Positions 1-46,264 of a stretch of DNA of 64,000 bases are shown one piece after another. Source of the DNA: an uncultured Gammaproteobacteria bacterium. GTDB taxonomy: Bacteria; Patescibacteriota; Microgenomatia; Daviesbacterales; UBA10151. Both the position numbers and the translations under genes were made by a program. Under the pieces are notes generated by a model. The model saw nothing but the letters and a program-made list of their open reading frames with translations, ran no database searches and had not been told where the DNA came from. Location: positions 117,873 through 181,872 of the forward strand of contig CAYNFQ010000001.1 of assembly GCA_964396715.1 (NCBI GenBank), given 5' to 3'. Each line of letters opens with the position of its first letter. Within the stretch, counting starts at the first letter, position 1.

Positions 1-868
1 TTGGGAATATAATTAGTATGCTTAAAGTAAAGAATAGACCAACGGCAACTAAACTATGAATGAATAAAATGAATCCGTCAATTGTAGCGGGTGCTCCAAA
101 ATGATCAAACCCCCAAGCAGTTTTAGGTAATTGTCCTAGCCAATGAACTACCCCCTCTGAAATATTTGGAAAAGTTATATTAATCGGCCAAGCTAGAATA
201 AAACCTCCAAGAGAGATAAATCCTATCAAAGGGATAACAATAGATGAAATTAAGATATAGATTTTATTTTCTTTAAAGAGAAATATGTTGGAGATTATTT
301 GGCCTATTGAAAAAAGGACTAGAAACGACAAAATTGCATATAAGAAATTATTATATCCGCCTGTAAGAACTCTGGAGGCTCCCAAAAATTCTGCCACACC
401 GATGTGGTAATAAGCAAGGTAATCAGGTTGCCAGGGTGTATGCATAGGGTAATCACCTCTTATGAAAGATGAGGAAAGTGAATAATGCATGGTTGAATCA
501 GCGCTAATTGAACCACCGCTTGTAGCAGTAATAATAATCAAAAAAATAGACCAAAAAGAAATTGAAATAAGCCATAAAAATAGAGAAGAATTTTTTGGAA
601 AATTAATTTTTTCTACTGGAAAATTATACTTAATTAACCAGGCAATGATGATTTCCGCAATCAGGCTGATATAAAATCCTGGAGGGCCTTTAATCAGGTG
701 TACTACAGCATTAATTAGGAAAATATAAAAAGCGATTCCCAATATAATCCCCGAAGGGATAACTATTTGCGCTCTAGTTTCGTTGACAACTCTTTTAAGA
801 ATGGTAATTCCACAGATAATCAGTACGGAAAAAAACAAAATGGTTTTAAAATATACTAAAAATTCCAT
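1..868 (-). CDS. Partial (N-terminal ~289 aa) polytopic membrane protein, family-A paralog of 870..3143 and 5314..7656; start ATG at 868-866, runs off the window start
   Basis: Manual reverse-strand translation gives MEFLVYFKTILFFSVLIICGITILKRVVNETRAQIVIPSG...HTPWQPDYLAYYHIGVAEFLG, collinear with N-termini of the two downstream paralogs (shared ITxTS, RGDxPxHTPWQPDY motifs); not in ORF track because no stop inside window. Confidence 0.6.
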   Translation of the reverse strand, partial: MEFLVYFKTILFFSVLIICGITILKRVVNETRAQIVIPSGIILGIAFYIFLINAVVHLIKGPPGFYISLIAEIIIAWLIKYNFPVEKINFPKNSSLFLWLISISFWSIFLIIITATSGGSISADSTMHYSLSSSFIRGDYPMHTPWQPDYLAYYHIGVAEFLGASRVLTGGYNNFLYAILSFLVLFSIGQIISNIFLFKENKIYILISSIVIPLIGFISLGGFILAWPINITFPNISEGVVHWLGQLPKTAWGFDHFGAPATIDGFILFIHSLVAVGLFFTLSILIIFP

Positions 869-869
869 T

Positions 870-3143
870 TTAATTTGTGCTCCATAATTTTAAACCATTG
901 CCAAAGCCTTCCCATATTACCTCGGGGTCACAATTACAAATACTCTTAGGGTCCTTCCCCTGTCTCAAAATCAGATAGTCATAGTGATCTAAATTACCAA
1001 GTATTGGTATTTTTCCCTCAATTCTACTCCAATAGTTGTGGGCACCATAAATATCTCTTTCTCTTAACGTCATCACCATGGCTCGATAAAATTCAATTGA
1101 GTCTTGGTCAATGTAAATTGATCCATCTGATGGAGCTATTCTTGCTAGTTCCTCTAAAGTGCCGCTTAGGGTTTGAGAATTTTCTATATAAGAGGGTAGT
1201 ACCTTTAGGATTGTTTCCGTTGGATCGGAGTAAACTTTTTGAAAATAATCCGGATTTAACAGATCCTGTTTTCTTAAATTAGGCAGGCTGGAGTAATAAA
1301 AGTTATTGATCATTAAATATTCTACCTTGAGGTTTTTTAGTATTCCAGGATTTAAAGTGTAGTATAAATCCACATATGATGGACCTGCATCAAAATTTTC
1401 ATATGCTCTTAAATCAGGGCCAAAAACAGGGGTAAAAACTCCAATCTGTGTTGCCAAATCCATATTGGTTGAGGGAATAGTATTCCCATCAGTTAAGGCA
1501 ACAATTCTTTTCTCCACAGGTAAATTATTTTTTATCCACTCAAAGCTGGGTCTTTTGATTTCTTGAACAATTTTAAACCAAGATAAATCCGATCTTCTGG
1601 GAAAAAGCCTGGCAAATGGTGGAACCAAAGAAAATATTAATATCCAAAGGATCAAAATTTTTAAAACTATGTATTTTTTGCCTTGATGGCTTAACCACCA
1701 ATTTATGATAAAAAATCCAATGCCTATTCCTGATAATTGATATGAAATTGCCAGGAATCTCCATCCATTTGTATGGAACAGTTTTGGCACCAACCCATGG
1801 TAGGCAATCAATGCTGAAAGGGAAGAAATGAGTATTAATGCTAAAATAGTATTAAATTCATAATCTTTTTTTTTAGTTAAGTAAAATACAACAATAATAA
1901 GAAGGGCAAGGAGTTGCCAAATAATACCTATCTGCAACCATCTAAAAGGTTGGAACCTAGGAAGATCTTCAAATAAAGTGGATGCTTGTGAATGCAATCT
2001 AAGACTTCTGAAATTCTCATAAGGATTATTTGGATTATCAGCGGGGAATATTAATATTCCTGAGCCCGTGTGGTATCTATTCAATATAGCTTCTTTGATT
2101 ATTCCGCCCTGAAAAGAAATGATAAACAAAATAGCTAGAGTAGTTAATATCCATAATTTAATTTTTCTTTCAAAGCAAAAAAAGGATACCAAAAATATGG
2201 CAGGTAATATAGAAATTAAAACTGATTCATCAAGCAAAGCAATCGATGCGATCGAAATTATAAGAACAAGGCTAGTTAATAGATTTTTCCTATTGGGATA
2301 CAAAAGGAGAGGAATTAAGCTTAAAAAAATTGAAGTAGAGACTAACCTATGCAATATATAAATTAAGGGATCTAGAAATCCCGCCGAAGCATTAGAAATC
2401 TCAATACTTGGTAGCTTATTTAGCCAGTTTAAAATTCCATTATCAAGATTAGGAAGTGCAAGTTTGCTTGGCCAGACTATCATAAACGCTCCCAAGGAAA
2501 TAAAGCCTATAAAACCCGACAGTGAAAACAATAAAATATTAGAAGATTTTTTAGAAAATAAAATCCAGGTTATGATTTGGATAGAGCAAAATAAAGAGAT
2601 AAGTGCTAAAACAGCATGTATAAAATGATATGAACCTCCAGTTAGAAACCTAACCGCTGCCAGAAGTTGAGAAATGCCTAAATGGGAATAGCTCACATAA
2701 TCAGGTTGCCAGGGAGTATGTATTGGAAAATCTCCTCTTAAAAAAACAGAAGCCTGAGTAAAATAAAAAGTATTATCAGATCCATTAAAGGGGGATGTAT
2801 TGGTAATAATAAGAAAAAATGCACCCCAAAAAAATAAGGTAACAAACCAAGCAATCCTTTGTTTTCCTTGAGGAAATTCTAGTGGATTGGTTTTAATAAG
2901 CTTTACTATGATAAAGGTCAGAAGTAGTTGGATTATTACAGCCGAATAAAATAGTGGCCAGCCTTTTATAAAATGCGCTGAAAAATTTATTAAAAATAAA
3001 AATAGCGATATTCCAAACAAACAACCGGCTGGTAATATGATTTCTGCTCTTCGGGTAGATAACACTCTTTTTGTGATTGTAATTCCACAGTATAGTAGGA
3101 TGGAAAACAAAATTAGTGTTTTAAAGTAAATATACAAAGTCAT
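870..3143 (-). CDS. Polytopic membrane protein (family A), ~12 N-terminal TM helices plus C-terminal soluble domain; possible GT-C-type glycosyltransferase
   Basis: 757-aa ORF; hydrophobic N-terminal two thirds; motifs ITNTSPFNG, HTPWQPDY, HTNGWRFL, RLFPRRSDLSW, LTDGNTIPSTNMDLATQIG shared with 5314..7656. Confidence 0.7.
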   Translation of the reverse strand: MTLYIYFKTLILFSILLYCGITITKRVLSTRRAEIILPAGCLFGISLFLFLINFSAHFIKGWPLFYSAVIIQLLLTFIIVKLIKTNPLEFPQGKQRIAWFVTLFFWGAFFLIITNTSPFNGSDNTFYFTQASVFLRGDFPIHTPWQPDYVSYSHLGISQLLAAVRFLTGGSYHFIHAVLALISLFCSIQIITWILFSKKSSNILLFSLSGFIGFISLGAFMIVWPSKLALPNLDNGILNWLNKLPSIEISNASAGFLDPLIYILHRLVSTSIFLSLIPLLLYPNRKNLLTSLVLIISIASIALLDESVLISILPAIFLVSFFCFERKIKLWILTTLAILFIISFQGGIIKEAILNRYHTGSGILIFPADNPNNPYENFRSLRLHSQASTLFEDLPRFQPFRWLQIGIIWQLLALLIIVVFYLTKKKDYEFNTILALILISSLSALIAYHGLVPKLFHTNGWRFLAISYQLSGIGIGFFIINWWLSHQGKKYIVLKILILWILIFSLVPPFARLFPRRSDLSWFKIVQEIKRPSFEWIKNNLPVEKRIVALTDGNTIPSTNMDLATQIGVFTPVFGPDLRAYENFDAGPSYVDLYYTLNPGILKNLKVEYLMINNFYYSSLPNLRKQDLLNPDYFQKVYSDPTETILKVLPSYIENSQTLSGTLEELARIAPSDGSIYIDQDSIEFYRAMVMTLRERDIYGAHNYWSRIEGKIPILGNLDHYDYLILRQGKDPKSICNCDPEVIWEGFGNGLKLWSTN

Positions 3144-3203
3144 AACTAGTTTAAATTAACAATAAAAAGATAATCCATACATTATTTAGCTTTGAGCGAT
3201 TCT

Positions 3204-3953
3204 TTATTTTTTGATTACTGCCAATAACGATATGCCAAAAGGATAATTTATAAATTTACTAAATGCTATTTCTGTTTTAAATATTGTGAGCAATATTTTA
3301 TTGATTATTCTGATTTTAGCTAAGTTAAAATTTAACTGGGAATCATGCTCTCCTAATCCCTTGAATAGACTAATCTTGGATAAAAATCTTATTATTACTA
3401 TGGGAAAAGAAAGTAGAAAATTAAAAAAGACCATATTTAGTATTTTTAGGTTAGCATTTTCTGCCAAAGATTCAATTTCATCTCTCCTGTACCTTCTATG
3501 GTGATTTTGCATGCTATCATGTTGAGACCAAATTATAGGGAGCGCAGGGACGGTTATTATTATAAGACCATTTTTTTTTAGTACACGTTTAGCTTCCTTA
3601 ATTGCTAACTCGTCATTTTCAATATGTTCTAAAACATCTAAGAAAACAACTACATCAAACATGCGGTTCCTATAAGGTAATTTACATGCATTTGCCAATT
3701 TTACCTTCTTTGCCCCCTTTTTTTTACAGTAGTCAATTGCTAGTTTCATATTGTCTATTCCGTGAACATTGCCGAAATTGGATAAAAATTTAATATTGCT
3801 ACCTGTACCACAACCTATATCTAAAATAACTACATCTTCTAGTTTTTTTTGTAGAAATTTCTTAAAAATTTTGCTAAGAATTTGTCTTCTTCCCTCAAAC
3901 CACCAATGAAAATCTTCAATCTCGGTAAATTTATCAATTAAATAAGCGTTCAT
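3204..3953 (-). CDS. Class I SAM-dependent methyltransferase
   Basis: Motif I VILDIGCGTGSN, acidic loop, LDVLEHI motif; 249 aa. Confidence 0.8.
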   Translation of the reverse strand: MNAYLIDKFTEIEDFHWWFEGRRQILSKIFKKFLQKKLEDVVILDIGCGTGSNIKFLSNFGNVHGIDNMKLAIDYCKKKGAKKVKLANACKLPYRNRMFDVVVFLDVLEHIENDELAIKEAKRVLKKNGLIIITVPALPIIWSQHDSMQNHHRRYRRDEIESLAENANLKILNMVFFNFLLSFPIVIIRFLSKISLFKGLGEHDSQLNFNLAKIRIINKILLTIFKTEIAFSKFINYPFGISLLAVIKK

Positions 3954-4030
3954 AGGTATTTTAATATCATAAAAAGGTCAAATAAAATTTTAACATAGCT
4001 TTTTTAGATACAAAGCCATCTTAGTAAATT

Positions 4031-5359
4031 CTAGACGATTATTTCTCTAGAGATAATTTCTGCTATGGCCCCCCCCATTTCTATTGCATAGTTTGTTCCT
4101 CTGTCCCAGGGATAAACCATATCCAAATTAGCCAGATAAACATTTTTTAAAGGAGTTTTAAATGTAGGGATTAAATCTTTGTAGTTTGTGGTGACAATGG
4201 GTTGGGCAAAGGGGCCGACAAATTTGTGATAAGTGATAAGTGATAAGTGATAAGTTGGGTTGATTTTTTTAAGATATGGATCAAATTTTTTCAAAATTGA
4301 CTTGGCGGTCATTTTTAAAAACGGATGATCAGATGGTAAGTAATTACCAATATAAATAATGTGCTTCCCCCCATAATGTTTGGGATCCATGAAGTTGGTG
4401 TGTTCTGCAATTATCAAAAATGGGAAGCTGCTGTCAGTGATATTTAACCAGTAAGTTTTTTCCATAAACGGTTTTTTGAGAACCAGAATTAAAACTAAAG
4501 CATGAAGATGGGGGATGGAGCATATTTTTTTAACATATGTTTTTGGAAGATTTGTTGTTATTTTAGCAAAAATGGGGGATGGCAGTGTAATTATTGCTTT
4601 ATCAAAAATGAGTTTTTTAGCACCAGTTTTTATCCTAACATTTTTTCCCGCGGATAACGAGGTAACTGATGTGCCAGTCAAAATTTCTCCTCCCATTTTT
4701 TTAATTTCCTCCCCAAGTCTGTCGGCAAAAGCTTTAAACCCTCCTTCCGGATAAGCAAGCCTTGGAGTTCTTTTTTTAATTCTTGCCCAAAACCAGGATA
4801 ATGCAATATTATCTTTGTAAGAGCCGAACTTTCCGGAAAATAACGGCTCCCACAGCATTTTAGCAGCCCTCTCCCCCATAAAACGCTTAATCCAGGATAA
4901 AGCAAATTTATTTTCAAATTTATCGTAACGGTTGATTAATTTTAGGTACAAAAGGGAAATTCCAACACGCAAACGGTCAATAATTGGGAGCGGAATAAAT
5001 GTTAAAAGAGATTTAGGGCTATCAAAAGGGAATCGCTTACCGTTTACTAAAACATCTGTAGACGGTCTTTTAATTATAACTTTATGTCTCAATTCCCTTG
5101 TTAGATTAAAAGCTGCCTGATCATTAGTAAACCAGTGATGATAGGCTTTCTCCAGTGTCCACCGCCATTTGGGATTTGAAAATCCAATAGCCAGACCGCC
5201 AAGTTCGGATTCTTTTTCAAAAATAGTCACCTTGTAGCCTTTTTTTAGCAAGGTGTATGCGGCTGATAAACCTGTGAAGCCTGCCCCAAGAATTGCAACT
5301 TTATCGGCCCTTTTCATTTTGTTTTCCATAAATTTACTCTTCCGTCCAATCCTGACCAC
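4031..5359 (-). CDS. FAD/NAD(P)-binding oxidoreductase (amine-oxidase/protoporphyrinogen-oxidase/UGM-like superfamily)
   Basis: N-terminal Rossmann dinucleotide motif VAILGAGFTGLSAAYTL...EKESELGGL; 442 aa. Confidence 0.65.
   Translation of the reverse strand: MVRIGRKSKFMENKMKRADKVAILGAGFTGLSAAYTLLKKGYKVTIFEKESELGGLAIGFSNPKWRWTLEKAYHHWFTNDQAAFNLTRELRHKVIIKRPSTDVLVNGKRFPFDSPKSLLTFIPLPIIDRLRVGISLLYLKLINRYDKFENKFALSWIKRFMGERAAKMLWEPLFSGKFGSYKDNIALSWFWARIKKRTPRLAYPEGGFKAFADRLGEEIKKMGGEILTGTSVTSLSAGKNVRIKTGAKKLIFDKAIITLPSPIFAKITTNLPKTYVKKICSIPHLHALVLILVLKKPFMEKTYWLNITDSSFPFLIIAEHTNFMDPKHYGGKHIIYIGNYLPSDHPFLKMTAKSILKKFDPYLKKINPTYHLSLITYHKFVGPFAQPIVTTNYKDLIPTFKTPLKNVYLANLDMVYPWDRGTNYAIEMGGAIAEIISREIIV
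4226..4253. repeat. Perfect heptanucleotide tandem repeat (GTGATAA)x4 inside the oxidoreductase CDS (encodes TYHLSLITYH on minus strand)
   Basis: Read directly: gtgataagtgataagtgataagtgataag. Confidence 0.9.
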
Positions 5360-7656
5360 AGTAATTCAGCCTGGCAATGGCAGATTGATTGAATGTCTAA
5401 ATTATGACCGCCTACAATATAATCATAATGATCTGAACTGATGCCGTAAAAAGGGATATTAATGCTCAATCTGCTATTCCAATAATCTGTTACCCCATAA
5501 AATTTCCTGTCACGTAATATTAAAAGAAGAGGTCTGTACAGGTCGAAAAATTCCTGAGCTGATTTATGATCTATAAAAAAACTTCCCTTTTTCGGTAGTA
5601 TTTTTTCGAGTTCCTCTAAAGTACCCTTCAGATTCTTGCCCTCTTCTAAATATTTAGGCAGTATCTTTACTATTACTTCTCCCGACGGGTCATTTAAGAC
5701 TGGTTGAAAAAACTCACTATTAAATATGTCAGACTTTCTTACTTGGGATAATTGAGATAGATAAAGGTTATCTATTATCAAATAAGAAGGTTTAAGTTTC
5801 TTAAGTGAATTTGGATTTAAAGTATAGTAAAGATCGATATAAGTGGGGCTTATATCAAATCCGTCGTAATTACGGATATCATCGGGCCAAATAGGGGTAT
5901 AAGCTCCAATTTGTTTGACGAGATTCATATTGGAAGAAGGAGTAGGGTTGTCATCGGTTAATGCCAATATTCTTTCGGAAATTGGGATGTTTTGTTTTAC
6001 CCATTCGTAAATTTGTTTTTTCGGTTCAGGTCGTACTGTGATCCATGAGAGATCGGGACGTCTTGGGAAAAGACGCAAGAAGGAGGGAACAAAGGAAAAA
6101 ATCAAAATCCACACAATAAGAAATTTCAAAAAGAAAAATTTTCTTGGAATTTTGCCCCAAAAAAATATTAAAGAGAAACCCACACCAATACCCGCCAGTT
6201 TATATGATAAAAATAAAAACCGCCAGCCATTAGTATGAAAAGGGTTTGGAACTATAATATGGAAAGCAAGAAAGGCGCCTAAAGAGGAAAAAAACATTAT
6301 CAAAATCATAAGTTTTAGTCTTTTTTCTTCCTCATTGTTTTCTTTTTTGGTAAATAATGTAACGTAGGAAGACATAAACAGCAGAAAACCCAGTAGCCAG
6401 ATAATTCCCACTCTAAACCACCTGAATGGTTGCAATGTTGCTAAATCATCATATAGATATGAAGATTGATATGCCAGTCTCCAGCTTCTAAATTTCTCAA
6501 AAGGATTTTCCCTATCCCCAGGCAAAATTAATGTTCCGGAACCCATTTTGTAGCGGTCTAATAGAACCTCTGTGACAGTGCCGCCTTGAATTGCTATTGT
6601 AGCAATTGATAAAAGTACGAAAATGGTTAAGGGGAGCAATCTTCTAAATGTAAATATTGCTATAAAAAAGACCGCTGGCATTGCGGGGATTAATACTGAT
6701 TCATCGGTTAATGCGATTGTTGCAAGAAAGATAACTAAGGTACCTATTGAGATAAGATATTTTTTATTTTCTGATGGAGATAAAAGAACCGGAAGTAAGC
6801 CAATAAAAAAAGACATGGCAGTGACTCTTTGCAGGAAAAGAATGACTGCATCTATTGAAATATAGTCAAGATAGCCAAGGTAAGGAAATTGCGGAGGATT
6901 TGGCATTTCCAAAGCAGGCAGTGATGTTAACCAGTTAACCAAACTGCCATTTATATCAGGTAAAGCTATTTTGGCAGGCCAGGCAAGCATGAAACTGCCT
7001 ACGGAGATAATACCTGCAAAAGGAGGAATAGATAAAATAAGGAAGGACCGGAAACTTTTTGTTTTTTTAAAATCTAAAAGCCAAGTTAGGATTTGACTGC
7101 AAGAAAACAAAGCAAGAAACGCTATGAATGCTTGAATAAAATAATAATTAGCGCCTGTTAAAATCTTAAAAGACCCCAAAAGTTGTGAGGCACCCAAATG
7201 AAGAAAGGCAATATAGTTTGGCTGCCATGGGGCGTGTAGCGGTAAACCCTCTCTAGTAAAGAGGGCTGCAAAGGATTGATATTCAGTATCATGTCCTCCG
7301 TTAAAAGGTGAGGTATTTGTGATAATAAAGAGCAGGACTCCCCAGAAAACAGCTGAAATTATCCAAAATAGCCTTAATGTTTTAGTTGGAAACTCCAGCG
7401 GTTGCACCTTTTGTTTTATATGAATAATTAAAGCTAGGATTATTTCTACTGCTAAACTTATATAAAAAAGGGGTGATCCTTTTATAAAATAGGCAAAGGC
7501 ATTAGTCAAAAAAAGATATAGTGAGAGGCCAAAAATAAGCGCGGTAGGTGCAAGTATTTGTAAACGGTTATCTTTAGTTGCTCTTCTGATAATGGCCATT
7601 CCGCTTAAGAAAATAATTAATGTAAAAATTAAAGTTTTAAGGTATATAAAAAGCAT
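5314..7656 (-). CDS. Polytopic membrane protein (family A paralog); start trimmed to Met98 of the 877-aa ORF by alignment with the 870..3143 paralog
   Basis: MLFIYLKTLIFTLIIF aligns with MTLYIYFKTLILFSIL; trimming also removes the head-to-head overlap with the divergent GT2 gene; motifs ITNTSPFNG, HAPWQPNY, HTNGWRFL, RLFPRRPDLSW, LTDDNPTPSSNMNL. Confidence 0.7.
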   Translation of the reverse strand: MLFIYLKTLIFTLIIFLSGMAIIRRATKDNRLQILAPTALIFGLSLYLFLTNAFAYFIKGSPLFYISLAVEIILALIIHIKQKVQPLEFPTKTLRLFWIISAVFWGVLLFIITNTSPFNGGHDTEYQSFAALFTREGLPLHAPWQPNYIAFLHLGASQLLGSFKILTGANYYFIQAFIAFLALFSCSQILTWLLDFKKTKSFRSFLILSIPPFAGIISVGSFMLAWPAKIALPDINGSLVNWLTSLPALEMPNPPQFPYLGYLDYISIDAVILFLQRVTAMSFFIGLLPVLLSPSENKKYLISIGTLVIFLATIALTDESVLIPAMPAVFFIAIFTFRRLLPLTIFVLLSIATIAIQGGTVTEVLLDRYKMGSGTLILPGDRENPFEKFRSWRLAYQSSYLYDDLATLQPFRWFRVGIIWLLGFLLFMSSYVTLFTKKENNEEEKRLKLMILIMFFSSLGAFLAFHIIVPNPFHTNGWRFLFLSYKLAGIGVGFSLIFFWGKIPRKFFFLKFLIVWILIFSFVPSFLRLFPRRPDLSWITVRPEPKKQIYEWVKQNIPISERILALTDDNPTPSSNMNLVKQIGAYTPIWPDDIRNYDGFDISPTYIDLYYTLNPNSLKKLKPSYLIIDNLYLSQLSQVRKSDIFNSEFFQPVLNDPSGEVIVKILPKYLEEGKNLKGTLEELEKILPKKGSFFIDHKSAQEFFDLYRPLLLILRDRKFYGVTDYWNSRLSINIPFYGISSDHYDYIVGGHNLDIQSICHCQAELLWSGLDGRVNLWKTK

Positions 7657-7738
7657 ACCCTGATACATTATCAAAAAGGTTATGCTTAGTAAAGCTATTG
7701 TTGTAAGCAATTTCACAACTTCAGTTATAATTAGTAAT
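7657..7738. promoter_or_regulatory. Divergent intergenic region between family-A membrane protein gene and GT2 gene; probable bidirectional promoter
   Basis: Only non-coding gap between divergently oriented genes; AT-rich. No consensus elements confirmed. Confidence 0.25.
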
Positions 7739-8455
7739 ATGAAAAATGATTTGAAACAAATGGCTGGGGTGTCTTTAATTATTCCCGTTTTAGATGAAGA
7801 AAAAACTTTAACCGATATAATTTCCAAATGCTCAAAAGAGACAGTAGTGAAACAGCTCGTTATTGTAAATGATGGTTCAACAGATAAGACTAAAAATATC
7901 CTGGATAGATTAAGCAGTGAGAATAAGAATAGTAGGCCTCTTATCACGGTTACTCATCATTCAAAGAATTTAGGGAAAGGTGCAGCTATTAAAACTGGGT
8001 TAACTAGAGTTTTAGGAAAATATGTCATGGTTCAGGATGCGGATTTGGAATATTCTCCTGATGAAATTAAATACCTGTTTAATGAGGCGAAAAAAGAAAA
8101 CAGAATTGTTTTTGGCACAAGATCTCATCATAAAAAAAAGGGTTATCTTCTTGCCCAACTTGGTAACTGGTATTTAAATGTAATGTTTAATTTATTATTT
8201 GGTTACAGTTTAACAGACAGCTATACTTGTTATAAATTGATCCCCCAGACTATTTGGAAAAAAATGAATCTTGTATCAAATGGGTTTGAAATTGATGCCG
8301 AATTAATTTCTAAACTGGGTGTAAATGGTTATAAAATTAAAGAAATTCCTATATCATATTTTCCCAGAAAATATTCAGAGGGTAAAAAAATTAAGTGGTT
8401 GGATCTTTTTAAAGCAACTGCAGTAGCACTAAGGATTCGTTTTAGTCATTTGTAA
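7739..8455 (+). CDS. GT2 glycosyltransferase, polyprenyl-phosphate sugar synthase type (DPM1/ArnC-like)
   Basis: SLIIPVLDEE...VIVNDGSTDKT, DxD motif QDADLEY, C-terminal amphipathic tail; start could be 7682, 7739 or 7760; paralog of 51785..52525. Confidence 0.75.
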   Translation: MKNDLKQMAGVSLIIPVLDEEKTLTDIISKCSKETVVKQLVIVNDGSTDKTKNILDRLSSENKNSRPLITVTHHSKNLGKGAAIKTGLTRVLGKYVMVQDADLEYSPDEIKYLFNEAKKENRIVFGTRSHHKKKGYLLAQLGNWYLNVMFNLLFGYSLTDSYTCYKLIPQTIWKKMNLVSNGFEIDAELISKLGVNGYKIKEIPISYFPRKYSEGKKIKWLDLFKATAVALRIRFSHL

Positions 8456-9393
8456 TGTTTTAAAGCTACCGCTTGGCCATTATTTTCTACAGATTGTTCT
8501 ATTGCAGAGAGCACTTTTACTACTTTAACCCCAAAATTTATATCCGATGTAATTTTTTTGAAACCCTGAATTGCTTTTACAAACTCCGATAATTCTTCGG
8601 TTAATGCTGAATCAGGCTTATATTTTGGATACTCTGGAGGCGTATCCATTTTATGTAATAAGATTTTTTGATCTGTAGTATTTGTAAAATCTAACTCTAA
8701 TTTTTCGCTTCCCCCCTTAACTATTAGTCTTCTAACCTTGTGAGATCCAAACCAACTAATACGAATTGTTGATTTGATACCGTTGATAAAATAGATTAAA
8801 GCTTCAACGCTATCGTATAGGGTGTTTCCGGCTTTTTTTGAACCGGTTGCACTTACTTTTAATATTGGATATTTGACTAAATCAAGTAGTAAAGAAACCG
8901 GATGAGGTCCCCAGTCCCAAATAACGGAAACATCTTTTCTGACAGGGCTGCTCGTACCCTCAAAAAATATTGACTTGACTTTTTTAATCCGTTTAAACTT
9001 TTTTCTAAATACCTGATATGCAGGGTTATATAAATATAGGTGCCCTATTAAAACCTTCGGTTTTTTCATTTGCCAGATTTTTTTAAGCTGTAAAGCCTGA
9101 TCGTAACTTATTGCCAGCGGTTTTTCTATCAATAAATTGCACCCTAAAGATAAAAGTTGATTGGCTATAGCAAAATGTGTACTTGCAGGGCTTGCAATGA
9201 TAAAACCGTCTACCCCTCTTTTTTTAAGCAAATTTTTAACAGATAGTATTTGAATGTATGTATCAGGCAAAAGATCTAATGTTTTCTTACTTCGCGCGCA
9301 AATATATTTGATTTTAACATTGGCTAAAGTGGTAGCGGTATTCAGATAATTTTTACCCCATTTACCTACACCAATAAGCGCTAGAGTAATCAT
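8446..9393 (-). CDS. Gfo/Idh/MocA-family NAD(P)-dependent sugar oxidoreductase
   Basis: N-terminal ALIGVGKWGKNY Rossmann, EKPLA motif; 1-nt TAATG overlap with upstream gene. Confidence 0.75.
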   Translation of the reverse strand: MITLALIGVGKWGKNYLNTATTLANVKIKYICARSKKTLDLLPDTYIQILSVKNLLKKRGVDGFIIASPASTHFAIANQLLSLGCNLLIEKPLAISYDQALQLKKIWQMKKPKVLIGHLYLYNPAYQVFRKKFKRIKKVKSIFFEGTSSPVRKDVSVIWDWGPHPVSLLLDLVKYPILKVSATGSKKAGNTLYDSVEALIYFINGIKSTIRISWFGSHKVRRLIVKGGSEKLELDFTNTTDQKILLHKMDTPPEYPKYKPDSALTEELSEFVKAIQGFKKITSDINFGVKVVKVLSAIEQSVENNGQAVALKHYK

Positions 9394-10451
9394 TACAGTT
9401 GATATGTTTGTTTAAACCAATTGATAGTTTGTTTAAGGCCTGTTCTAAGATCTACTTTTGGTTGGTAATTTAAGTGATTTTTAATCTTTGTTAAATCCGG
9501 GCAGCGTCTTTGCGGTTCTCCGGCAGGATAATTTTCGGGATAATTTTTTCTTCTGGGTTTTACTCCGCTCCCTATCATATCTGCTATTGTTTGGGCCAGT
9601 TCAAACATACCGATTTCCGGATTGTCATTTCCAATATTATAAACCTCACCTTTTTTTCCCGAGATTAATACTTTAAAAATTGCCACAATTGCATCTGTAA
9701 CATAGCAAAAAGTTCGTGTTTGAATTCCTTTGTCATGTACTGGTAAATCTCTCCCGCTTAAGCCACTATAAATAAATGTAGGTATAACTCGGTAGTCAAC
9801 ATGTTTCATACCAGGCCCATAAATATTAAAGGGTCTGACAATTTTAATTGGTATATCATAAAGCTGATGATAAGTAATACATAAAGTTTCGGTGAGCCTT
9901 TTGGATTCATCATAGCAGGCTCTTGGTCCTATGCTGGAAACATGTCCGGCATAAGTTTCCGGAGTTGGGACAAATTTTGGATCCGGATCACCATAAATCT
10001 CGCTTGAGGAAAAAAACAAAAAACTTGCAGGCCTTGAAACCTTTGCCAGTTCCAAAAGATTTTTTGCGCCCAATATTGCACTTTCAATTGTTTCCAATGG
10101 ATATTTTTTATAATAGTATGGAGAAGCAAGCCCTGCGGCGTGGATTATATAATCCACTTTTTCATTAAGGGCAATAGGCTGTCTTATATCTGCATTGAGA
10201 AGTTTAAAATTTTTATCTTTTAAATTTACTAAAAAATTCTCCTTTGATCCTGTTATATAATTATCAATGGAAATAACCCTACATTTATTTTTCAGCACTT
10301 TTTTGTTAAGAAGATACAAAACCGCATTAATATAACTTCCTATAAACCCCGATCCTCCTGAAATAAGTACAATCTTGCCCTCTAAGGCTTTCGCTTCCTT
10401 CTCTATGCTTTTAATGATAGTTTTTAAATCTTTGTCGTTAATTTTTGACAT
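9393..10451 (-). CDS. Extended SDR, UDP-glucuronate decarboxylase (UXS/ArnA-C-terminal)-like NDP-sugar epimerase/dehydratase
   Basis: GGSGFIGS; SEIYGDP...GHVSSIGPRACYDESKRLTETLC closely matches UXS signature SEVYGDP...GPRACYDEGKRVAETMC. Confidence 0.8.
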   Translation of the reverse strand: MSKINDKDLKTIIKSIEKEAKALEGKIVLISGGSGFIGSYINAVLYLLNKKVLKNKCRVISIDNYITGSKENFLVNLKDKNFKLLNADIRQPIALNEKVDYIIHAAGLASPYYYKKYPLETIESAILGAKNLLELAKVSRPASFLFFSSSEIYGDPDPKFVPTPETYAGHVSSIGPRACYDESKRLTETLCITYHQLYDIPIKIVRPFNIYGPGMKHVDYRVIPTFIYSGLSGRDLPVHDKGIQTRTFCYVTDAIVAIFKVLISGKKGEVYNIGNDNPEIGMFELAQTIADMIGSGVKPRRKNYPENYPAGEPQRRCPDLTKIKNHLNYQPKVDLRTGLKQTINWFKQTYQL

Positions 10452-10454
10452 TTA

Positions 10455-11708
10455 TTAAATTATTGTAGGATCTGGAACGGGTATTATAAAGCTACCCCCG
10501 CGCCTTTTATAATCTTTTAATCTTTCCATTATTGAATCTGCAAAATTCCAGGCCAAAATTAATATGTAATCAGGGTTTGTTTCATCTATTTTGTCAGAGG
10601 GGACAACTAAAATATGGGTGCCCGGTGTATATAAGCCTTGTTTATATTTACTGTCATCCACTATATAATCTAAAATTTTTGGTTCTATTTTAAAATAATT
10701 TAAAAGTGTATTTCCTTTGGCAGGAGCGCCGTATCCTACGATAGTTTTATTTTTTGATTTAAGCTTTTTTAAAATATGCATTAACTTCTTTTTATTTTTC
10801 TCAATTTTTTTAGCAAACCTTAAATAAATTCCTGTTTTATTGAGCCCAAGTCTTTTTTCGTTATTAATATAATCAGCGACAGATTTTTGTATTTTGTATT
10901 TTGCTCCAAGTTTTTTAACATAAACTCTTAAAGATCCTCCGTGTGAATTTACCTTTTTGACATCAAAAATTTCCATGCCAAGCCTTTTAAAAATAGCAGA
11001 TAGAGGTCGGATTGAAAGATAAGATAAATGTTCATGATAAATTGTATCGAATAAGTTTTTTTCTATGAAATCAACTAAATATGGGAATTCAATTACAAAA
11101 ACGCCATTCTCGCCTGTTAAAATTTTTACCGATTCTATTATTTCGTCTAAGTTATGAATATGGGCAAATGCGTTGTTTGCAGTTACTACTTTTGCATGCC
11201 CGAATTTTTTAACAATATCCTTAGCAAGCTTTATGTTTAGAAAATTTGGTAAAGTTTTAATACCAGAGAGCGTTGCCTTTTTTGCTATGGCAACAGCCGG
11301 ATCTACACCCAACACTTTCACCAGAGCCTTTTTAAGAGGCTTAAGCAGGATGCCGTCATTTGAGCCAATATCAATTACCATAGATTTCTTATCCAATTCA
11401 AACCTCTTAATTAAATCCCGAGCATACTCTTCAAAGTGTGCTATAAACACAGGCGAAGTAGATGAAACGTAAACGTAGTTTCTAAAAAGCAAGTCGGGGG
11501 AAACAACGTGGGTAAGTTGTAGCTGATTGCAGTCTAAACAGAAATTAACCTCAAGAGGGAAAAAATGCTCTTTTTTTCTTAAATCAGTTTTCTTTAAAAA
11601 AGCATTGGCAGGAGGGGTCGCAGACAAGGAGATCACGCTTTTTAAATTCTTGCCTTTACACATTCTGCAAAAGTTTAGTTTAAATACCAGGAGATTATTC
11701 TTTTTCAT
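10455..11708 (-). CDS. NDP-hexose C-methyltransferase-like (Zn-ribbon N-terminus + class I MTase + C-methyltransferase C-terminal domain; TylCIII-like)
   Basis: N-terminal CRMC...CLDC zinc-binding pattern typical of sugar C3-methyltransferases; MTase core VIDIGSNDG. Confidence 0.65.
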   Translation of the reverse strand: MKKNNLLVFKLNFCRMCKGKNLKSVISLSATPPANAFLKKTDLRKKEHFFPLEVNFCLDCNQLQLTHVVSPDLLFRNYVYVSSTSPVFIAHFEEYARDLIKRFELDKKSMVIDIGSNDGILLKPLKKALVKVLGVDPAVAIAKKATLSGIKTLPNFLNIKLAKDIVKKFGHAKVVTANNAFAHIHNLDEIIESVKILTGENGVFVIEFPYLVDFIEKNLFDTIYHEHLSYLSIRPLSAIFKRLGMEIFDVKKVNSHGGSLRVYVKKLGAKYKIQKSVADYINNEKRLGLNKTGIYLRFAKKIEKNKKKLMHILKKLKSKNKTIVGYGAPAKGNTLLNYFKIEPKILDYIVDDSKYKQGLYTPGTHILVVPSDKIDETNPDYILILAWNFADSIMERLKDYKRRGGSFIIPVPDPTII

Positions 11709-12144
11709 CTGAAGTAATTTTAACTCTTACCGTATCCCCTTCATATTTACTTTGTTCTCTGGGTTCGGTTGTAACAGCCAAAAAAACACTATCCTCCAAA
11801 AACTCCATAGAATGTGCGATCATTGGTTTAGAAAGTACAAGGTCCCCCGGATTTAAAATTACCGATTCTATTTTAGAATTTGGGTCAGCCATATTTTTTT
11901 CCGAATACTTAAACTTTCCGCTTACGCAATATACAAAATGATAGTCTTTTTTATGATAATGATTGCCTCTTTCGGTTCCTGCTTTGCTTGTTATATATAG
12001 AACAGCCATAAATTGCGTTTTACCACCGTCAATCAATCGGGTTATATAACCTCTCTCATCTTCAAACTCGGGTTTTGTATGGGTAACTTTTATCGCCATA
12101 TTTAATTTAGGCTTAAGTGTATAGAGGATTTTATTCCTTGTCAA
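11695..12144 (-). CDS. Cupin-fold sugar isomerase/epimerase (WxcM/FdtA-like dTDP-4-keto-6-deoxyhexose isomerase family)
   Basis: GNHYHKKDYHFVYCVSGKF cupin metal/His motif; 149 aa; paralog of 28160..28552. Confidence 0.6.
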   Translation of the reverse strand: MTRNKILYTLKPKLNMAIKVTHTKPEFEDERGYITRLIDGGKTQFMAVLYITSKAGTERGNHYHKKDYHFVYCVSGKFKYSEKNMADPNSKIESVILNPGDLVLSKPMIAHSMEFLEDSVFLAVTTEPREQSKYEGDTVRVKITSDEKE

Positions 12145-35535: not shown

Positions 35536-36447
35536 ATGAAAAATTATCCCGGCGTTTCGGCAGTAATCCCGAGTTTTAATGATAAGAAAAAAGTTTTCCG
35601 GCTTTTGGATTCTTTAAAAAAATCAAAATATAAAAAATTGGAAATTATTGTTGTTATAAACGGGTTGATAGATACCCTTTTGGAGGGAAAGATTAAATAC
35701 AAATGGGTCCGCTGGATTGATGCGGGAAGGGAAAATATTGGCCAGACCGGATGCTACAATTTAGGTTTTGCGCATGCTAATAGAAAAAATCACATACTTT
35801 ATGTTGATTCCGATGTGGTTGTAGATAAGGAGATGGTTTCTAAATTGGTAGAAAGAGCCCAGTCAGATAAAAAAATTGGTATAGTTACCCCCATGATTTT
35901 ATATTTATCCGATAAAGATTGGGTTAATCAGGCAGGGGCAAGTGTGAATTTGATAACAGGAAAAGTAACAGTGGGCTGGGGTCCAAAAAAGGATTTTTTA
36001 ATAGCAAAAGAAGTGCAAAATTCTGGTACCCTGATGCTTTTTAAAAGACAGGTGGTTGATAAAATCGGAGGAGTTGATGATTGGTTCCTTTGTTATTTTG
36101 ACCCGGACTATTGTCTGAGAGCCAAAAAGGCAGGGTTTATAACCTGGTATGAGCCGAAAGCAATCTGTTACCATGATCAGTCTAAAAACCCAAATGTCTG
36201 GAGACCAAGAGTATTAACAAGGGCATATCTTTTGGGAAGAAACAGGGTTTTATTTATGAGAAGGCATGGAAATATAGTTACTTTCTCCTTTTTTTTGCCC
36301 TTAATTTTAGGTTTTTATCTTTTTGAATGCATTAAATTTGGACAAATTATTAAATTCTTTAAACTTTTGTGGGGGAGTATTGTAGGGTATTTTTATCCAT
36401 TAAGATCAGGTAATTTTATCCCGCTGCCAAAAGTAAACCGCACATGA
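35536..36447 (+). CDS. GT2 glycosyltransferase
   Basis: VSAVIPSFNDKKKV...EIIVVING, DSD motif. Confidence 0.7.
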   Translation: MKNYPGVSAVIPSFNDKKKVFRLLDSLKKSKYKKLEIIVVINGLIDTLLEGKIKYKWVRWIDAGRENIGQTGCYNLGFAHANRKNHILYVDSDVVVDKEMVSKLVERAQSDKKIGIVTPMILYLSDKDWVNQAGASVNLITGKVTVGWGPKKDFLIAKEVQNSGTLMLFKRQVVDKIGGVDDWFLCYFDPDYCLRAKKAGFITWYEPKAICYHDQSKNPNVWRPRVLTRAYLLGRNRVLFMRRHGNIVTFSFFLPLILGFYLFECIKFGQIIKFFKLLWGSIVGYFYPLRSGNFIPLPKVNRT

Positions 36448-38000
36448 AAAACAAATTAGCTTCGGTTGTAATAGTCACACATAATAGGAAGAAAGACTTG
36501 CTGGAATGTATAGATTCTTATTTTAAGTCAAGTTATCACCCGATTGAAGTAATTGTTGTAGATAATGCCTCAAATCCTGCCGTAAAAACATATCTTCCAA
36601 AAAAATATCCTAAGGTAAGAGTAATAACCAATAATAGAAACCTGGGGGCAGCGGAAGGAAGAAATATAGGTTTGGATACCTCAGTGGGGGAGTATATCCT
36701 GTTTTCGGATGATGATGCTTTTTGCGATAAAGATATGGTTAAGTATTTGGTTGAGGCATTCAAAAAAAAGCGTAAGGCAGGGATAATCCAGCCTTTGGTT
36801 TATGACAAACAAAAGAAAAATTATTTACAGGGGGCAGGTCATGATATTGATCTAACAACTGGAAGAATTAAGGCCTGGGGAGTCAGAGAAGAAGATAAGG
36901 GCCAATATGAAGGTTTAAGAAAAGTGCCAATGGTAGGATGTGTCTGGATGGTTAGAAAAGAAGTGTTTGAACAGGTGGGTAAATTTGATGCGGAATACTT
37001 TATTCCCTATGAAGACAGCGATTTTTGTTTGAGAGCATCAAATGCCGGTTTTGAAATTTATTGTTACTCAATGGCTAAATCTTGGCATTTGGGTCTTAAA
37101 ACAACTCATGTACATCCCCTGGTAGAGTGGTTAGGAATAACAACTCCGGAAAGATCGTATAGAGTTGCCAGAAACAAAATAATTTTTATGGCAAAAAACT
37201 CAAAATTTCCCAACAATTTGTTATTTTTCGGGCTATTTATGCCTGCATATTTGATTTTGCACTCATTAGTAATAATGTTGAGCGGTAGGTGGGATTTGTT
37301 AACAAGATACTGGCAGGGTGTTATCTCCGGGATATGGTATGGAATAAGGAGATTATTTAATAAAGCGACCATCATTATACTTTCCTTCACTGATCCGCTC
37401 CCATGGGTTTTGGATAAAAAGACAACAAGCATTTTAGACGTAGGGTGTGGAGAGGGTTTACCTATGAAGTTAATTAAAATAAGACTTAAGATAGAAAATT
37501 CAACCGGAGTAGATTTATTCAAGCCCTATATAGAAAAGGGAAGACAGTTTCAAATACATGATAATTACAAAATTCAGGATATAAGAAAGATAAATTTTAA
37601 AAATAGGTCTTATGATACGGTTATAGCGTCTCATGTTTTGGAACATCTTCCCAAAGATGATGCATTGAACCTTTTGCAAAAAATAGAGAAAATTGCCTCA
37701 AGACAAATAATTATAGCTTGCCCGATTGGACAGATGTATCACCCTGAAACAGACGGAAATAAACTGCAATTACACCTTTCGGCTTTTGAACCGGAAGAAT
37801 TTGAAAAAAGGGGTTATAAAATTATTAGGTATGGGTTCAGATGGTTGTTGGGAGAAGGAGGGATAATGGAATCATTTTCTAATATTTTCATCACGGAGAT
37901 TTGTTTTACTATTCACTTGCTATTTACGCCTATTTTTTATATATTTCCCAATATTGGAAGCTACACATTTGTGGCCTACAAAAAATGTAATGAAGCATAA
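36444..38000 (+). CDS. Fusion protein: N-terminal GT2 glycosyltransferase + hydrophobic linker + C-terminal class I SAM methyltransferase
   Basis: ASVVIVTHNRKKDLL...VIVVDNAS, DDD; then ILDVGCGEGLP...SHVLEHLPK MTase motifs; 518 aa. Confidence 0.7.
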   Translation: MKNKLASVVIVTHNRKKDLLECIDSYFKSSYHPIEVIVVDNASNPAVKTYLPKKYPKVRVITNNRNLGAAEGRNIGLDTSVGEYILFSDDDAFCDKDMVKYLVEAFKKKRKAGIIQPLVYDKQKKNYLQGAGHDIDLTTGRIKAWGVREEDKGQYEGLRKVPMVGCVWMVRKEVFEQVGKFDAEYFIPYEDSDFCLRASNAGFEIYCYSMAKSWHLGLKTTHVHPLVEWLGITTPERSYRVARNKIIFMAKNSKFPNNLLFFGLFMPAYLILHSLVIMLSGRWDLLTRYWQGVISGIWYGIRRLFNKATIIILSFTDPLPWVLDKKTTSILDVGCGEGLPMKLIKIRLKIENSTGVDLFKPYIEKGRQFQIHDNYKIQDIRKINFKNRSYDTVIASHVLEHLPKDDALNLLQKIEKIASRQIIIACPIGQMYHPETDGNKLQLHLSAFEPEEFEKRGYKIIRYGFRWLLGEGGIMESFSNIFITEICFTIHLLFTPIFYIFPNIGSYTFVAYKKCNEA

Positions 38001-41600: not shown

Positions 41601-42139
41601 TTGAACCCCGTTTGTCAGCCGATGATACTTTAATTGAGATATCGGTTGAACCCTGGAATGATTGTGAGATAATCAGCCCGATTCGTTCGACTTGCAAGAT
41701 TAAGAAATTTAGAAAACAATTTGACAGAAAAAGCACATTGATTGTCAAAAATGTTGTCCTTGAAAGAATTTCCAGGTCTGAGATTTTTCTTAAAACCTCA
41801 AATAGCAAAATTAAAGAGTCTACAAATTCAGGCAGGGTTGAATATGCTAGGGAAAACCCTTCTTTTGTCAGGGGGAAATTAAAAATCGATAAACCCCAAG
41901 TTTTGGTATTCGCTGAAACTTTCGATAAGGGTTGGAAGTTAGATTTATTTAAAGAGGGTAGAAAAATTAATCCTCAGGAGCATTTATTGGTAAACGGTTA
42001 TGCTAATGGTTGGTTGGTAAAGGAAGCTGGAGAATATGAATTCTCTATCAATTTTGACGCCCAGAAACTAGTCAACATAGGCGGTATAATATCTATGATA
42101 ACTTTGGGGGGATTACTATTATGGCTTATCAGAAAATAA
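38636..42139 (+). CDS. Giant (1167 aa) polytopic membrane protein, family B; N-terminal ~570-aa multi-TM GT-C-like module and ~600-aa C-terminal extracytoplasmic domain
   Basis: WFKQGLAFGGGDVGLPTFNPQRI...WWEASAPGFPRPQG, VLRNPFEKIG, ILHLPLVVGEATAYKWEYGYRGVEPS, IRYIVLHLDMD, C-terminal NGYANGW; alternative GTG start at 38672. Confidence 0.7.
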   Translation: MIIRLWPTGVLIVKIKDYLSVAFLFILSTILILIWFKQGLAFGGGDVGLPTFNPQRIFQFISHIWWEASAPGFPRPQGITGTPFYFLLSLLQKIIPSYVLMQALIFWLVLFFMGLGMYLVSKSVFGKEKVLIPLVSSILYLVNPYMQISVWHRFVHTTFFLASTLPFLFIFWRRWITSGKRLDLLIFSLINVLGAIIFSTLGFVISLWVFLFFTSFFIIFIPRKSLFEAKTIIVRSTAGFIVWVFISLWWILPLFATSQAIFSRQHSSAESVTNLIVLSNQTAIPNTLQGINPFYLFEEKEWGEIYNQWYFLLMPFILVTLAVLGFVRGLGDRKFIFWSLLFLVSIIFAKGAAAPFGGGFVYLFSKFFVLGVLRNPFEKIGIFIPFTYAILIPIGLITFFKFAKKAKLQYIVMPFVSILLILILVIWHWPFWQGKLFGSQYSPPEVQVPDYYLKADNWIKEQGKDGRILHLPLVVGEATAYKWEYGYRGVEPSQVFFTSNPSLSQGFNLSFLDDALATLQIFLNRSDFVDEDQIRQLLKIFGIRYIVLHLDMDPTYMDVYNPIRLKKQLGQLKFLKKQNEFGKLIIYEVLEENPIIFTASSFDYLLMGEKNQFWPWLIKNKNNQLISGIDLDEDSIHTDHSIVVASFSFDTPPSNPVEEKIELDQLPSVRILPGSPFYFLIRLKEYFETYSVFGKERISKQILFASKRLVEAVKIKELDKNNQISAILTDYSDLLDKLKLSLKGAFPYEKSAVDAIFARHSVILDSLTDSAVTGSEKEIVVKAKEKLAEDLSLWGLRPLIAFNKETSLYNRRVFTFQVSKTGDYEVLFGLDKGNSFDEIFDIALDGKPILKNNPTDLEQPVKIISFGKIYLEPGYHELSYRSKKIPVNILSLDKWFKSEKGEFSGNSDEMSISSEINETASMQLPMKDFIAGNTYILRFEYWVQKGKGPIVQVLSDNDPIIKGKREMKADKQFAAETYNRYWQNAFVSFEPRLSADDTLIEISVEPWNDCEIISPIRSTCKIKKFRKQFDRKSTLIVKNVVLERISRSEIFLKTSNSKIKESTNSGRVEYARENPSFVRGKLKIDKPQVLVFAETFDKGWKLDLFKEGRKINPQEHLLVNGYANGWLVKEAGEYEFSINFDAQKLVNIGGIISMITLGGLLLWLIRK

Positions 42140-42483
42140 AATCAGTATCCATAAGGTTGTTTATTTTGTTTCTTTCAATAGTATTGATTTATTATACTAA
42201 TGGTAATGCCGGCAGTGAATCTTTTGGAAATATTCAATCTGCAATTTTGTCAGCAGGTTTGATTGTTGCAGTGTATTTACCTGCTAAGAGGCCTTTCATA
42301 CTTCTCTTTGCCATTTTAATGTGGTCTGTTATGATAGGATTTTACCTGGTAGAAGCTCGGGATTATGCTTACTTTTTCGGCAGTATAGGTTTTGGGATAA
42401 TATTTCTGGTAATCTTAACTTATGTTCCGGAACTTTTAAAAACAGGTTATATAGCCGATTTTCAAAAATGGTTCAAAGATTAA
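42121..42483 (+). CDS. Small (120 aa) 3-4 TM membrane protein following giant B1
   Basis: Hydrophobic; C-terminal GSIGFGIIFLVILTYVPELLKTGY resembles GSLGIGILAILIFSYFGDFVKRGF of 45935..46264. Confidence 0.5.
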   Translation: MAYQKIKSVSIRLFILFLSIVLIYYTNGNAGSESFGNIQSAILSAGLIVAVYLPAKRPFILLFAILMWSVMIGFYLVEARDYAYFFGSIGFGIIFLVILTYVPELLKTGYIADFQKWFKD

Positions 42484-45938: not shown

Positions 45939-46264
45939 AAAAAATGTTGCTTAAAACTTTTTTTGTAATAATGTCTTTTTTTATCTTTTGGTGGCTGGAA
46001 TCCGGCTTGAAAATAGAAGAAATTAGCGCAATTATTAAGCCTTTAATATTTGCCCTCTCAGTTTCAATGACTTTTTCAATTAAACTTCGAAGGTATTTAT
46101 TATACATAAGTTTCTTGTTTTATTGTCTGATGATTTTTCTATATTTAATTTGGCAAATAAGCTTAGCAAACCTTGCAGGAAGTTTAGGAATTGGGATACT
46201 GGCTATCTTGATATTTAGCTATTTTGGTGATTTTGTAAAAAGGGGTTTTGTTGAGAAGCTATGA
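45935..46264 (+). CDS. Small (109 aa) membrane protein following giant B2
   Basis: ATGA overlap with giant stop; 3 hydrophobic segments; C-terminal motif shared with 42121..42483. Confidence 0.5.
   Translation: MKKMLLKTFFVIMSFFIFWWLESGLKIEEISAIIKPLIFALSVSMTFSIKLRRYLLYISFLFYCLMIFLYLIWQISLANLAGSLGIGILAILIFSYFGDFVKRGFVEKL

Follow-up and report, generated by a model that had tools for sequence, protein, structure and literature searches.

Three related membrane proteins encoded close together in a Daviesbacteria genome (Microgenomatia; Patescibacteriota) raise the question of which protein family they represent and what they do alongside the genes between them. We analyzed a stretch of 64,000 nt, termed the window, from assembly GCA_964396715.1 (contig CAYNFQ010000001.1, 117,873 to 181,872), in which they lie within a Wzx/Wzy-type glycan locus. 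All genes of the paralog operon are on the minus strand, which the earlier note had not given, in the order copy 3, FAD-dependent oxidoreductase, methyltransferase, copy 2 and copy 1, with copy 3 coming first. Copy 3 (5314..7656) comprises 780 residues, with an alternative start at 7668 (gene calls in L001/L002); its longest open reading frame, extending to 7947, runs into a plus-strand GT2 gene, and the homologs fit a start at 7656 or 7668. The start of the FAD enzyme (4031..5329; 428–432 residues) overlaps the copy 3 stop codon (ATGA at 5317..5314), and the next gene encodes a class I SAM-dependent methyltransferase of 249 residues with a hydrophobic carboxy-terminal part (3204..3953). Copy 2 (870..3143) comprises 757 residues. 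Copy 1 (1..868) leaves the window at its edge and is represented by its amino-terminal 289 residues; its full length in the source contig is 788 residues (L002:12276-14642). The GT2 gene, of the polyprenyl-phosphate glycosyltransferase type (7682..8455, plus strand; Glycos_transf_2, 6e-27), is divergent from copy 3.

The three copies are paralogs, as had been proposed before: copy 2 aligned over its full length with copy 3 at 46% identity (E = 0) and with the 289 residues of copy 1 at 39% identity (E = 1e-69), and the A2 profile matched copy 1 at 1.9e-101. A profile search of all ORFs of the window yielded no further member, and the family and the window's remaining membrane families are distinct at the HMM level. 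Unannotated membrane proteins of 580–710 residues in L002, L012 and L014 were also considered and showed no HMM-level membership. The four motifs previously described as invariant (RGDxPxHTPWQPDY, HTNGWRFL, RLFPRRxDLSW and LTDxNxxPSxNMxL) turned out not to be so, several of them holding among close paralogs only; copy 3 reads REGLPLHAPWQPNY. Family-wide, HTNGWRF shrinks to N459, G460 and R462.

The earlier note had also described a tandem array with an inserted methyltransferase/oxidoreductase pair. The tandem arrangement holds for copies 2 and 1, which are separated by 1 nt, and not for copy 3, which is set off from both by two genes. The two enzymes between copies 2 and 3 were correctly identified (Methyltransf_11, 2.2e-21; Amino_oxidase, 1.3e-28), the latter having an amine-oxidase/CrtI/HpnE-type fold and scoring 399 bits against NCBIfam PRK07233 (cutoff 252). 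The pair is, however, not an insertion into such an array; the whole module, including a methyltransferase ortholog and the GT2 gene in its divergent position, recurs in a second genome (L018) in a different gene order. Its three paralogs are 1:1 orthologs of those in the window, with identities of 72, 62 and 71% versus 38–46% between paralogs. The three copies are thus old lineages that have been maintained separately, so that they probably vary in the acceptor, the linkage or the donor, or else form a hetero-oligomer.

We then asked to which superfamily the paralogs belong. Scans against Pfam and NCBIfam gave no match for any of the three copies, and searches of PDB sequences with phmmer and a profile hmmsearch returned chance matches only (isocitrate lyase, ERF2 and mannosyl-3-phosphoglycerate synthase at E>0.1), in line with the description of the family as uncharacterised. 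Foldseek likewise found nothing in the PDB at E<=1e-3, which places the family far from every solved structure. Among the Foldseek matches, a probability of 1.0 was reached for AftA and PglB only; AftA was the best match overall. Transporters and polymerases with no relation to glycosylation received no confident match.

Remote homology was established through more distant relatives, against which the family profile aligned with an hhalign probability of 100% (E 7.6e-62). Of these relatives, 7 out of 33 match Pfam DUF2298 and 3 out of 33 match TIGR03662, the two shown individually scoring 24.6 and 25.0 bits, under the 27.8-bit cutoff. The relatives in turn aligned with CPR PMT_2 proteins (97.9%, E 6.4e-13 over 350 columns), with the family Asp falling on the 'PDE' motif of PMT_2. 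A PMT_2 profile made for this analysis matches only other ORFs of the window; for the three copies, all that was seen is remote profile–profile homology. The cluster labels of the distant relatives named Chloroflexota and Woesebacteria only.

The homology to DUF2298/TIGR03662, a group of membrane proteins from Chloroflexi, Archaea and CPR, is thus transitive and full-length, and the HMMs of the group do not match the three window proteins even at E 0.1. Both groups share a first loop of the D...GNFP...P...YHYG type, a conserved Glu, a QGG motif and an Arg, and genes for the same FAD enzyme and for PMT_2 proteins accompany members of both. The YYYxG sequence, which we take to be the motif of TIGR03662 (Chlor_Arch_YYY) from its TIGRFAM description, is reduced to xYxHxG in the window family: at this position the distant relatives have YHYG, and the window copies SYSHLG, AFLHLG and AYYHIG, keeping the His and Gly only. 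As DUF2298 itself has no known function, this link tells what the family is related to, not what it does. Our literature search returned passing mentions only of DUF2298, no biochemical data for it or for the window family, and nothing relevant for Chlor_Arch_YYY or for GT-C enzymes in Patescibacteria.

GT-C glycosyltransferases act outside the cell, where they transfer sugars from lipid carriers to surface molecules. Their core helix arrangement within a multi-pass transmembrane domain is present in the window family. Each protein is predicted to have 14 transmembrane helices, made up of three extra amino-terminal helices and an 11-helix GT-C core, with a soluble α/β domain outside the membrane (about 240 residues in copy 2). 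PMT_2/ArnT-type enzymes (GT39/GT83-like) differ in having 11–13 helices and a smaller carboxy-terminal domain, and the window proteins showed neither a direct Pfam PMT or PMT_2 match (E<=0.1) nor MIR domains. AftA (GT85, PDB 8IF8), a mycobacterial arabinofuranosyltransferase, has two extra helices instead of three and is 9–10% identical to the window family, with no HMM-level similarity. An arabinofuranose donor as used by AftA finds no support in the window family, and inspection of the operon showed neither DprE1/E2 nor phosphoribosyltransferase genes.

The topology prediction supports the earlier view of motifs lying outside the cytoplasm. Lys and Arg make up 13 of the 39 inner-loop residues, compared with 6 of the 111 outer-loop residues, which puts all conserved motifs and the carboxy-terminal domain on the predicted outer face. 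Across 128 sequences, the conserved residues are D123, G137, P140, P147, H154, E306, R462 and G568, with conservation reaching 100% for P140, 99% for H154, 97% for both E306 and R462, and 89% for D123 (92% for Asp or Glu). D123 follows TM4 and opens the first long loop, predicted to lie outside and to contain two helices (122–135 and 155–168); a conserved Asp or Glu in such a two-helix first extracytoplasmic loop is a GT-C feature. D123, H154, E306 and R462 are candidate active-site residues of copy 2, and from predicted secondary-structure position and hhalign D123 and R462 would correspond to D128 and R415 of AftA. A further outer loop (346–406) with low pLDDT (52–61) and short helices may correspond to the donor gate of GT-C enzymes, a long flexible outer loop between two distal transmembrane helices.

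The near-universal presence of outer-face Asp, His, Glu and Arg in 128 diverse sequences also bears on whether the proteins could be non-catalytic scaffolds or transporters that merely share a GT-C-like helix bundle, comparable to PIG-U/GAB1 in the GPI transamidase. The position of the family Asp on the PMT_2 catalytic motif and the linkage of the genes to a GT2 lipid-sugar synthase speak against such a role too, as do the Foldseek matches to transporters, all of which had probabilities <0.12 and were regarded as noise. We consider this explanation very improbable indeed. Instead, we regard it as likely that the three paralogs are integral-membrane glycosyltransferases of the GT-C fold, that their still unnamed family forms a distant branch within the DUF2298/Chlor_Arch_YYY group, and that they work by the lipid-linked mechanism set out below.

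The acceptor of such glycosyltransferases could be a protein rather than a polysaccharide, with the paralogs acting as oligosaccharyltransferase or DPY19/PMT-type enzymes on S-layer proteins, pilins or other CPR surface proteins. The α/β fold of the carboxy-terminal central core of GT66 (AglB/STT3/PglB) is indeed present in the window family; the same soluble core, however, is also carried by the polysaccharide-modifying AftA and AftD. The WWDYG motif of GT66 is missing from all copies. LTDxN, found at the equivalent strand-loop that follows a 'WI..N.P' helix (ALTDGN), was considered as its counterpart and rejected as a functional motif since it varies across the family, reading LTD, LME, LTH, LTQ, LTN, FME and others. 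DK/MI-type motifs, as known from GT66 and DPY19, are likewise lacking, and no STT3 HMM or PMT Pfam match was obtained. Together with the glycan-acting AftA as best overall match and the Wzx/Wzy-type nature of the locus, these data make transfer to proteins an unlikely alternative.

The adjacent GT2 gene points to the type of donor. Its best NCBIfam models were AglJ, ArnC and PpgS, all under cutoff, and its best relatives among PDB sequences were ArnC (5e-11), GtrB sll0501 and P. furiosus DPMS. In L008-L010 a GT2 gene directly follows family members. The GT2 protein probably makes a lipid-linked sugar donor, and a polyprenyl-monophosphate sugar would then be the donor of the GT-C paralogs, in contrast to the diphosphate-oligosaccharide donor of GT66. 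The same evidence weighs against Wzy-, WaaL- or SEDS-like polymerases or ligases, which would use polyprenyl-diphosphate-linked oligosaccharides instead of single monophosphate-linked sugars: scores to SEDS proteins were about half of those to monophosphate-donor GT-C enzymes, a dedicated Wzy_C protein exists in the same window (61844..63256), and both the first outer loop, with its conserved Asp, and the alignment to PMT_2 proteins agree with a PMT/ArnT-like class. A polymerase or ligase function thus appears quite improbable.

With the GT-C paralogs as putative monophosphate-dependent transferases, the module resembles the three-component extracytoplasmic glycosylation systems GtrA/GtrB/GtrC and ArnC/ArnEF/ArnT (reviewed in PMC11127046), which likewise place a GT2 polyprenyl-phosphate glycosyltransferase beside a GT-C enzyme, here inside a Wzx/Wzy glycan locus. 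These systems have one GT-C protein, whereas the window module has three paralogs, and its conserved flavoenzyme and methyltransferase are not part of the classical scheme. A flippase gene of the GtrA or ArnE/F type was not identified in the operon; ORFs with four predicted transmembrane helices lie far from the module (42121..42483 and 45935..46264) and have no Pfam match. In the proposed mechanism, the GT2 protein, working at the inner face, would charge polyprenyl phosphate with a sugar taken from a nucleotide sugar, the lipid-linked sugar would be flipped across the membrane, and at the outer face each GT-C paralog would hand it over to a glycan or protein acceptor on the surface. D123, with which the first long outer loop begins, would serve as the catalytic base, while R462 and H154 may hold the lipid phosphate.

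Homologs of the FAD enzyme (5541 at E<=1e-20, mostly from Microgenomates) habitually adjoin GT-C genes in Microgenomates, lying beside UppS, PMT_2 and DUF2298 genes, a linkage found in four of six homolog contexts from other genomes. In eight other loci, each with a single-copy family member, the enzyme is missing from the neighborhood, so the family does not strictly require it. A methyltransferase homolog of 38% identity occurs near a family member in L009. The probable role of the FAD enzyme and the methyltransferase, both co-transcribed with the paralogs, is to modify the lipid carrier or else the sugar, either while it is lipid-linked or once it has been transferred. That the flavoenzyme tailors the carrier or lipid-linked sugar and the GT-C paralogs are specialised for the modified donor is a more tentative and rather doubtful extension. 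Two roles are conceivable for the flavoenzyme: that of a prokaryotic reductase or desaturase for polyprenyl(-phosphate), yielding a dolichol-like carrier, and that of a non-homologous functional DprE1 analogue, which would oxidise the sugar moiety of a polyprenyl-phosphate sugar prior to its transfer; a literature search on polyprenol reductases with phytoene desaturase returned nothing relevant. The heptamer repeat reported in the FAD gene is real (4226..4255; GTGATAA x4.3, 100% matches, TRF score 60), reads TTATCAC x4 on the coding strand and encodes TYHLSLITYH. It is identical in two other assemblies, and a role as a frameshift phase-variation site was rejected, as no length variation occurred among homologs or the three assemblies.

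CPR/Patescibacteria genomes are tiny, and yet tens of kilobases of this one are given over to genes for surface glycans, many of which lack annotation. With the GT-C placement, three 'hypothetical proteins' and about 300 sequence clusters can be tested as extracytoplasmic glycosyltransferases with named candidate catalytic residues, and the DUF2298/Chlor_Arch_YYY group gains a functional context. The flavoenzyme gene recurs next to UppS and GT-C genes, which suggests a step in lipid-carrier or lipid-linked sugar chemistry that has yet to be described and that, if real, would bear on the modification of polyprenyl carriers in prokaryotes.

The genes of the module all lie on the minus strand and are transcribed leftward in the order copy 3 (5314..7656; 780 aa), FAD oxidoreductase (4031..5329), class I methyltransferase (3204..3953), copy 2 (870..3143; 757 aa) and copy 1 (868..1), where the start of the oxidoreductase gene overlaps the copy 3 stop (ATGA at 5317..5314) and copy 1 lies 1 nt past copy 2. 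The window covers only the first 289 codons of copy 1, which comprises 788 aa in JACPUL010000012.1, a contig of the Candidatus Daviesbacteria MAG GCA_016192255.1 identical to the window. Copy 2 aligned with copy 3 over the full length at 46% identity (E = 0) and with the copy 1 fragment at 39% (E = 1e-69), corroborating the paralogy proposed in an earlier note, and the methyltransferase/FAD oxidoreductase pair described there proved equally real. Its description of the shared motifs as invariant was overstated, as copy 3 reads REGLPLHAPWQPNY and LTDxN has many variants among homologs. Across 128 family members at least 600 aa long, conservation reached 89% or more at D123, G137, P140, P147, H154, G156, E306, R462 and G568 (copy 2 numbering). 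In copy 2, C736 and C738 form a CxC pair close to the C-terminal end of the outer domain; the pair is nearly invariant within the close family and might bind a metal or form a disulfide. The heptamer repeat reported within the FAD-enzyme gene was also present (4226..4255), consisting of four perfect TTATCAC units on the coding strand and encoding TYHLSLITYH; since the peptide has equal length in homologs and three assemblies are identical, nothing points to phase variation by slippage.

None of the three proteins matched Pfam or NCBIfam at E ≤ 0.1, and neither a single sequence nor a 26-sequence profile matched PDB chains. A word-indexed search yielded 25 full-length homologs (727–788 aa) without Pfam assignment, all named hypothetical proteins of Daviesbacteria, and searching 1.84 billion representatives with a profile gave 298 clusters at E ≤ 1e-3 (91 at E ≤ 1e-30). 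Scanning genomes revealed eight family loci, each in a Daviesbacteria or Patescibacteria MAG, three with a doubtful 'Gammaproteobacteria' title. The 'binchicken' MAG records containing L004, L008 and L011 are titled 'uncultured Gammaproteobacteria', a label that is probably a placeholder; these loci otherwise match Daviesbacteria/Patescibacteria genomes. Mid-distance relatives occur in Woesebacteria, and distant relatives of 922–1072 aa in Chloroflexota genomes of about 3.2–3.5 Mb. Among 33 distant matches, seven matched Pfam DUF2298 and three TIGR03662 (Chlor_Arch_YYY), the two shown individually being below the Pfam cutoff. The family profile aligned with the distant relatives over 711 columns (hhalign probability 100%, E 7.6e-62), and these in turn with PMT_2 proteins of CPR loci over 350 columns (97.9%, E 6.4e-13), starting with the family Asp on the PMT_2 'PDE' motif. 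For the close family, the C-terminal domain alone aligned with PMT_2 (87.7%).

The highest comparison scores were obtained for AftA (15.0), ALG12 (14.8), Pmt2 (14.1), AftB (13.6) and AglB (13.4), followed by PIG-M (13.4), STT3B (13.2), ArnT (13.1) and AftD (12.6). The isolated AglB-S2 C-terminal domain scored 9.0. The best matches of the C-terminal domain would favor the glycosylation of proteins by the three paralogs, a reading weakened by the absence of a WWDYG motif and by the presence of this domain also in AftA and AftD. A role as polymerase or ligase is unlikely, as SEDS proteins scored lower and the window contains a separate Wzy_C gene. Helix boundaries of the predicted model, combined with 13 Lys+Arg in 39 residues of inside-assigned short loops versus 6 in 111 outside-assigned ones, gave a predicted topology of 14 TM helices with the N-terminus and the C-terminal domain outside. 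The predicted outer face carries D123 with the RGDxPxHxPWQPDY loop, H154, D305-E306 in the TM8/TM9 turn, Q345-G346-G347, N459, G460, R462 and the PRR motif after TM14. This placement would fit an outer-leaflet active site of the GT-C type, and the conservation of Asp, His, Glu and Arg on this predicted face renders a non-catalytic role for the paralogs unlikely.

The same module is found in a second genome (SRR22388048; locus L018), where a GT2 on the opposite strand is followed by proteins of 785 aa, the FAD enzyme, 765 aa, the methyltransferase and 777 aa. The three window copies are matched there by one ortholog apiece (72%, 62% and 71% identity, versus 38–46% among paralogs), indicating that the triplication predates the split of the two genomes and that each copy was kept, which speaks for distinct roles or a hetero-oligomer. 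The eight other loci each carry a single family gene and no FAD enzyme, three of them with a GT2 immediately downstream.

The FAD enzyme itself is part of a very large family in Microgenomates (5541 matches at E ≤ 1e-20), whose members adjoin GT-C genes: a divergent UppS, then FAD enzyme, PMT_2 and DUF2298 or close variants (L013, L015, L017), FAD enzyme, PMT, PMT and a 709-aa protein (L014), or AftD-like giants (L012). In a recurrent synteny (L013:5204-11079; L015:5285-13266; L017:5079-12167; L014:6001-12742), UppS (cis-prenyltransferase) and the FAD enzyme precede one or two GT-C genes of the PMT/PMT_2 type and a ~700-aa DUF2298 protein, which hints at a carrier-lipid-related role of the flavoenzyme. 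A Chloroflexi locus has been listed with DUF2298, PMT2, an NAD-binding Rossmann protein and PMT2 (PMC8756737). Below PRK07233, HpnE was the closest of the characterised NCBIfam models, and the only two PDB relatives extending past the dinucleotide-binding motif are uncharacterised archaeal proteins. From these neighbors and relatives we infer that the flavoenzyme may be a conserved GT-C partner acting on the polyprenyl carrier or a lipid-linked sugar.

Divergent from copy 3, the GT2 (7682..8455) had ArnC, GtrB (sll0501) and the P. furiosus dolichol-phosphate mannose synthase as best PDB sequence relatives, and AglJ, ArnC and PpgS as best NCBIfam models, each below cutoff. Upstream of the module, a minus-strand operon (8446..12144) encodes a GFO/IDH/MocA oxidoreductase, an epimerase/dehydratase, a two-domain C-methyltransferase and an FdtA-like isomerase, which suggests a deoxy or amino sugar carrying a C-methyl group; in L018, too, this block precedes the module. 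A very large glycan locus occupies the remainder of the window, encoding GT2, GT4, DegT, formyltransferase, AftD-like and PMT_2 GT-C proteins as well as Wzx and Wzy_C. Encoded at 36444..38000 of the window and at L012:4362-5960 in another Daviesbacteria genome, a GT2-methyltransferase fusion immediately precedes an AftD-like giant GT-C; the two seem to be a second conserved pair. On the source contig, additional membrane proteins lacking annotation (582, 623 and 630 aa; L002:14789-21877) are encoded past copy 1, outside the left edge of the window; one has a weak GtrII (GT-C) match (E 0.009), and none is a member of the family.

In the proposed mechanism, the divergent GT2 would load a sugar, perhaps one made by the adjacent tailoring genes, onto polyprenyl phosphate, and the three GT-C paralogs would transfer this sugar outside the membrane, by analogy to three-component systems (reviewed in PMC11127046). 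Within the operon, the analysis identified no flippase. Two small ORFs adjoining the AftD-like giants (42121..42483 and 45935..46264; 120 and 109 aa), each with about four hydrophobic segments predicted by a hydropathy window count and no Pfam/family match, are candidate flippases for lipid-linked sugars. Fold, likely chemistry and the logic of combining a GT2 with GT-C enzymes are already known; the novelty lies in a sequence family that has neither a model nor literature so far, in its connection to DUF2298, and in the conserved module of three paralogs, flavoenzyme and methyltransferase.
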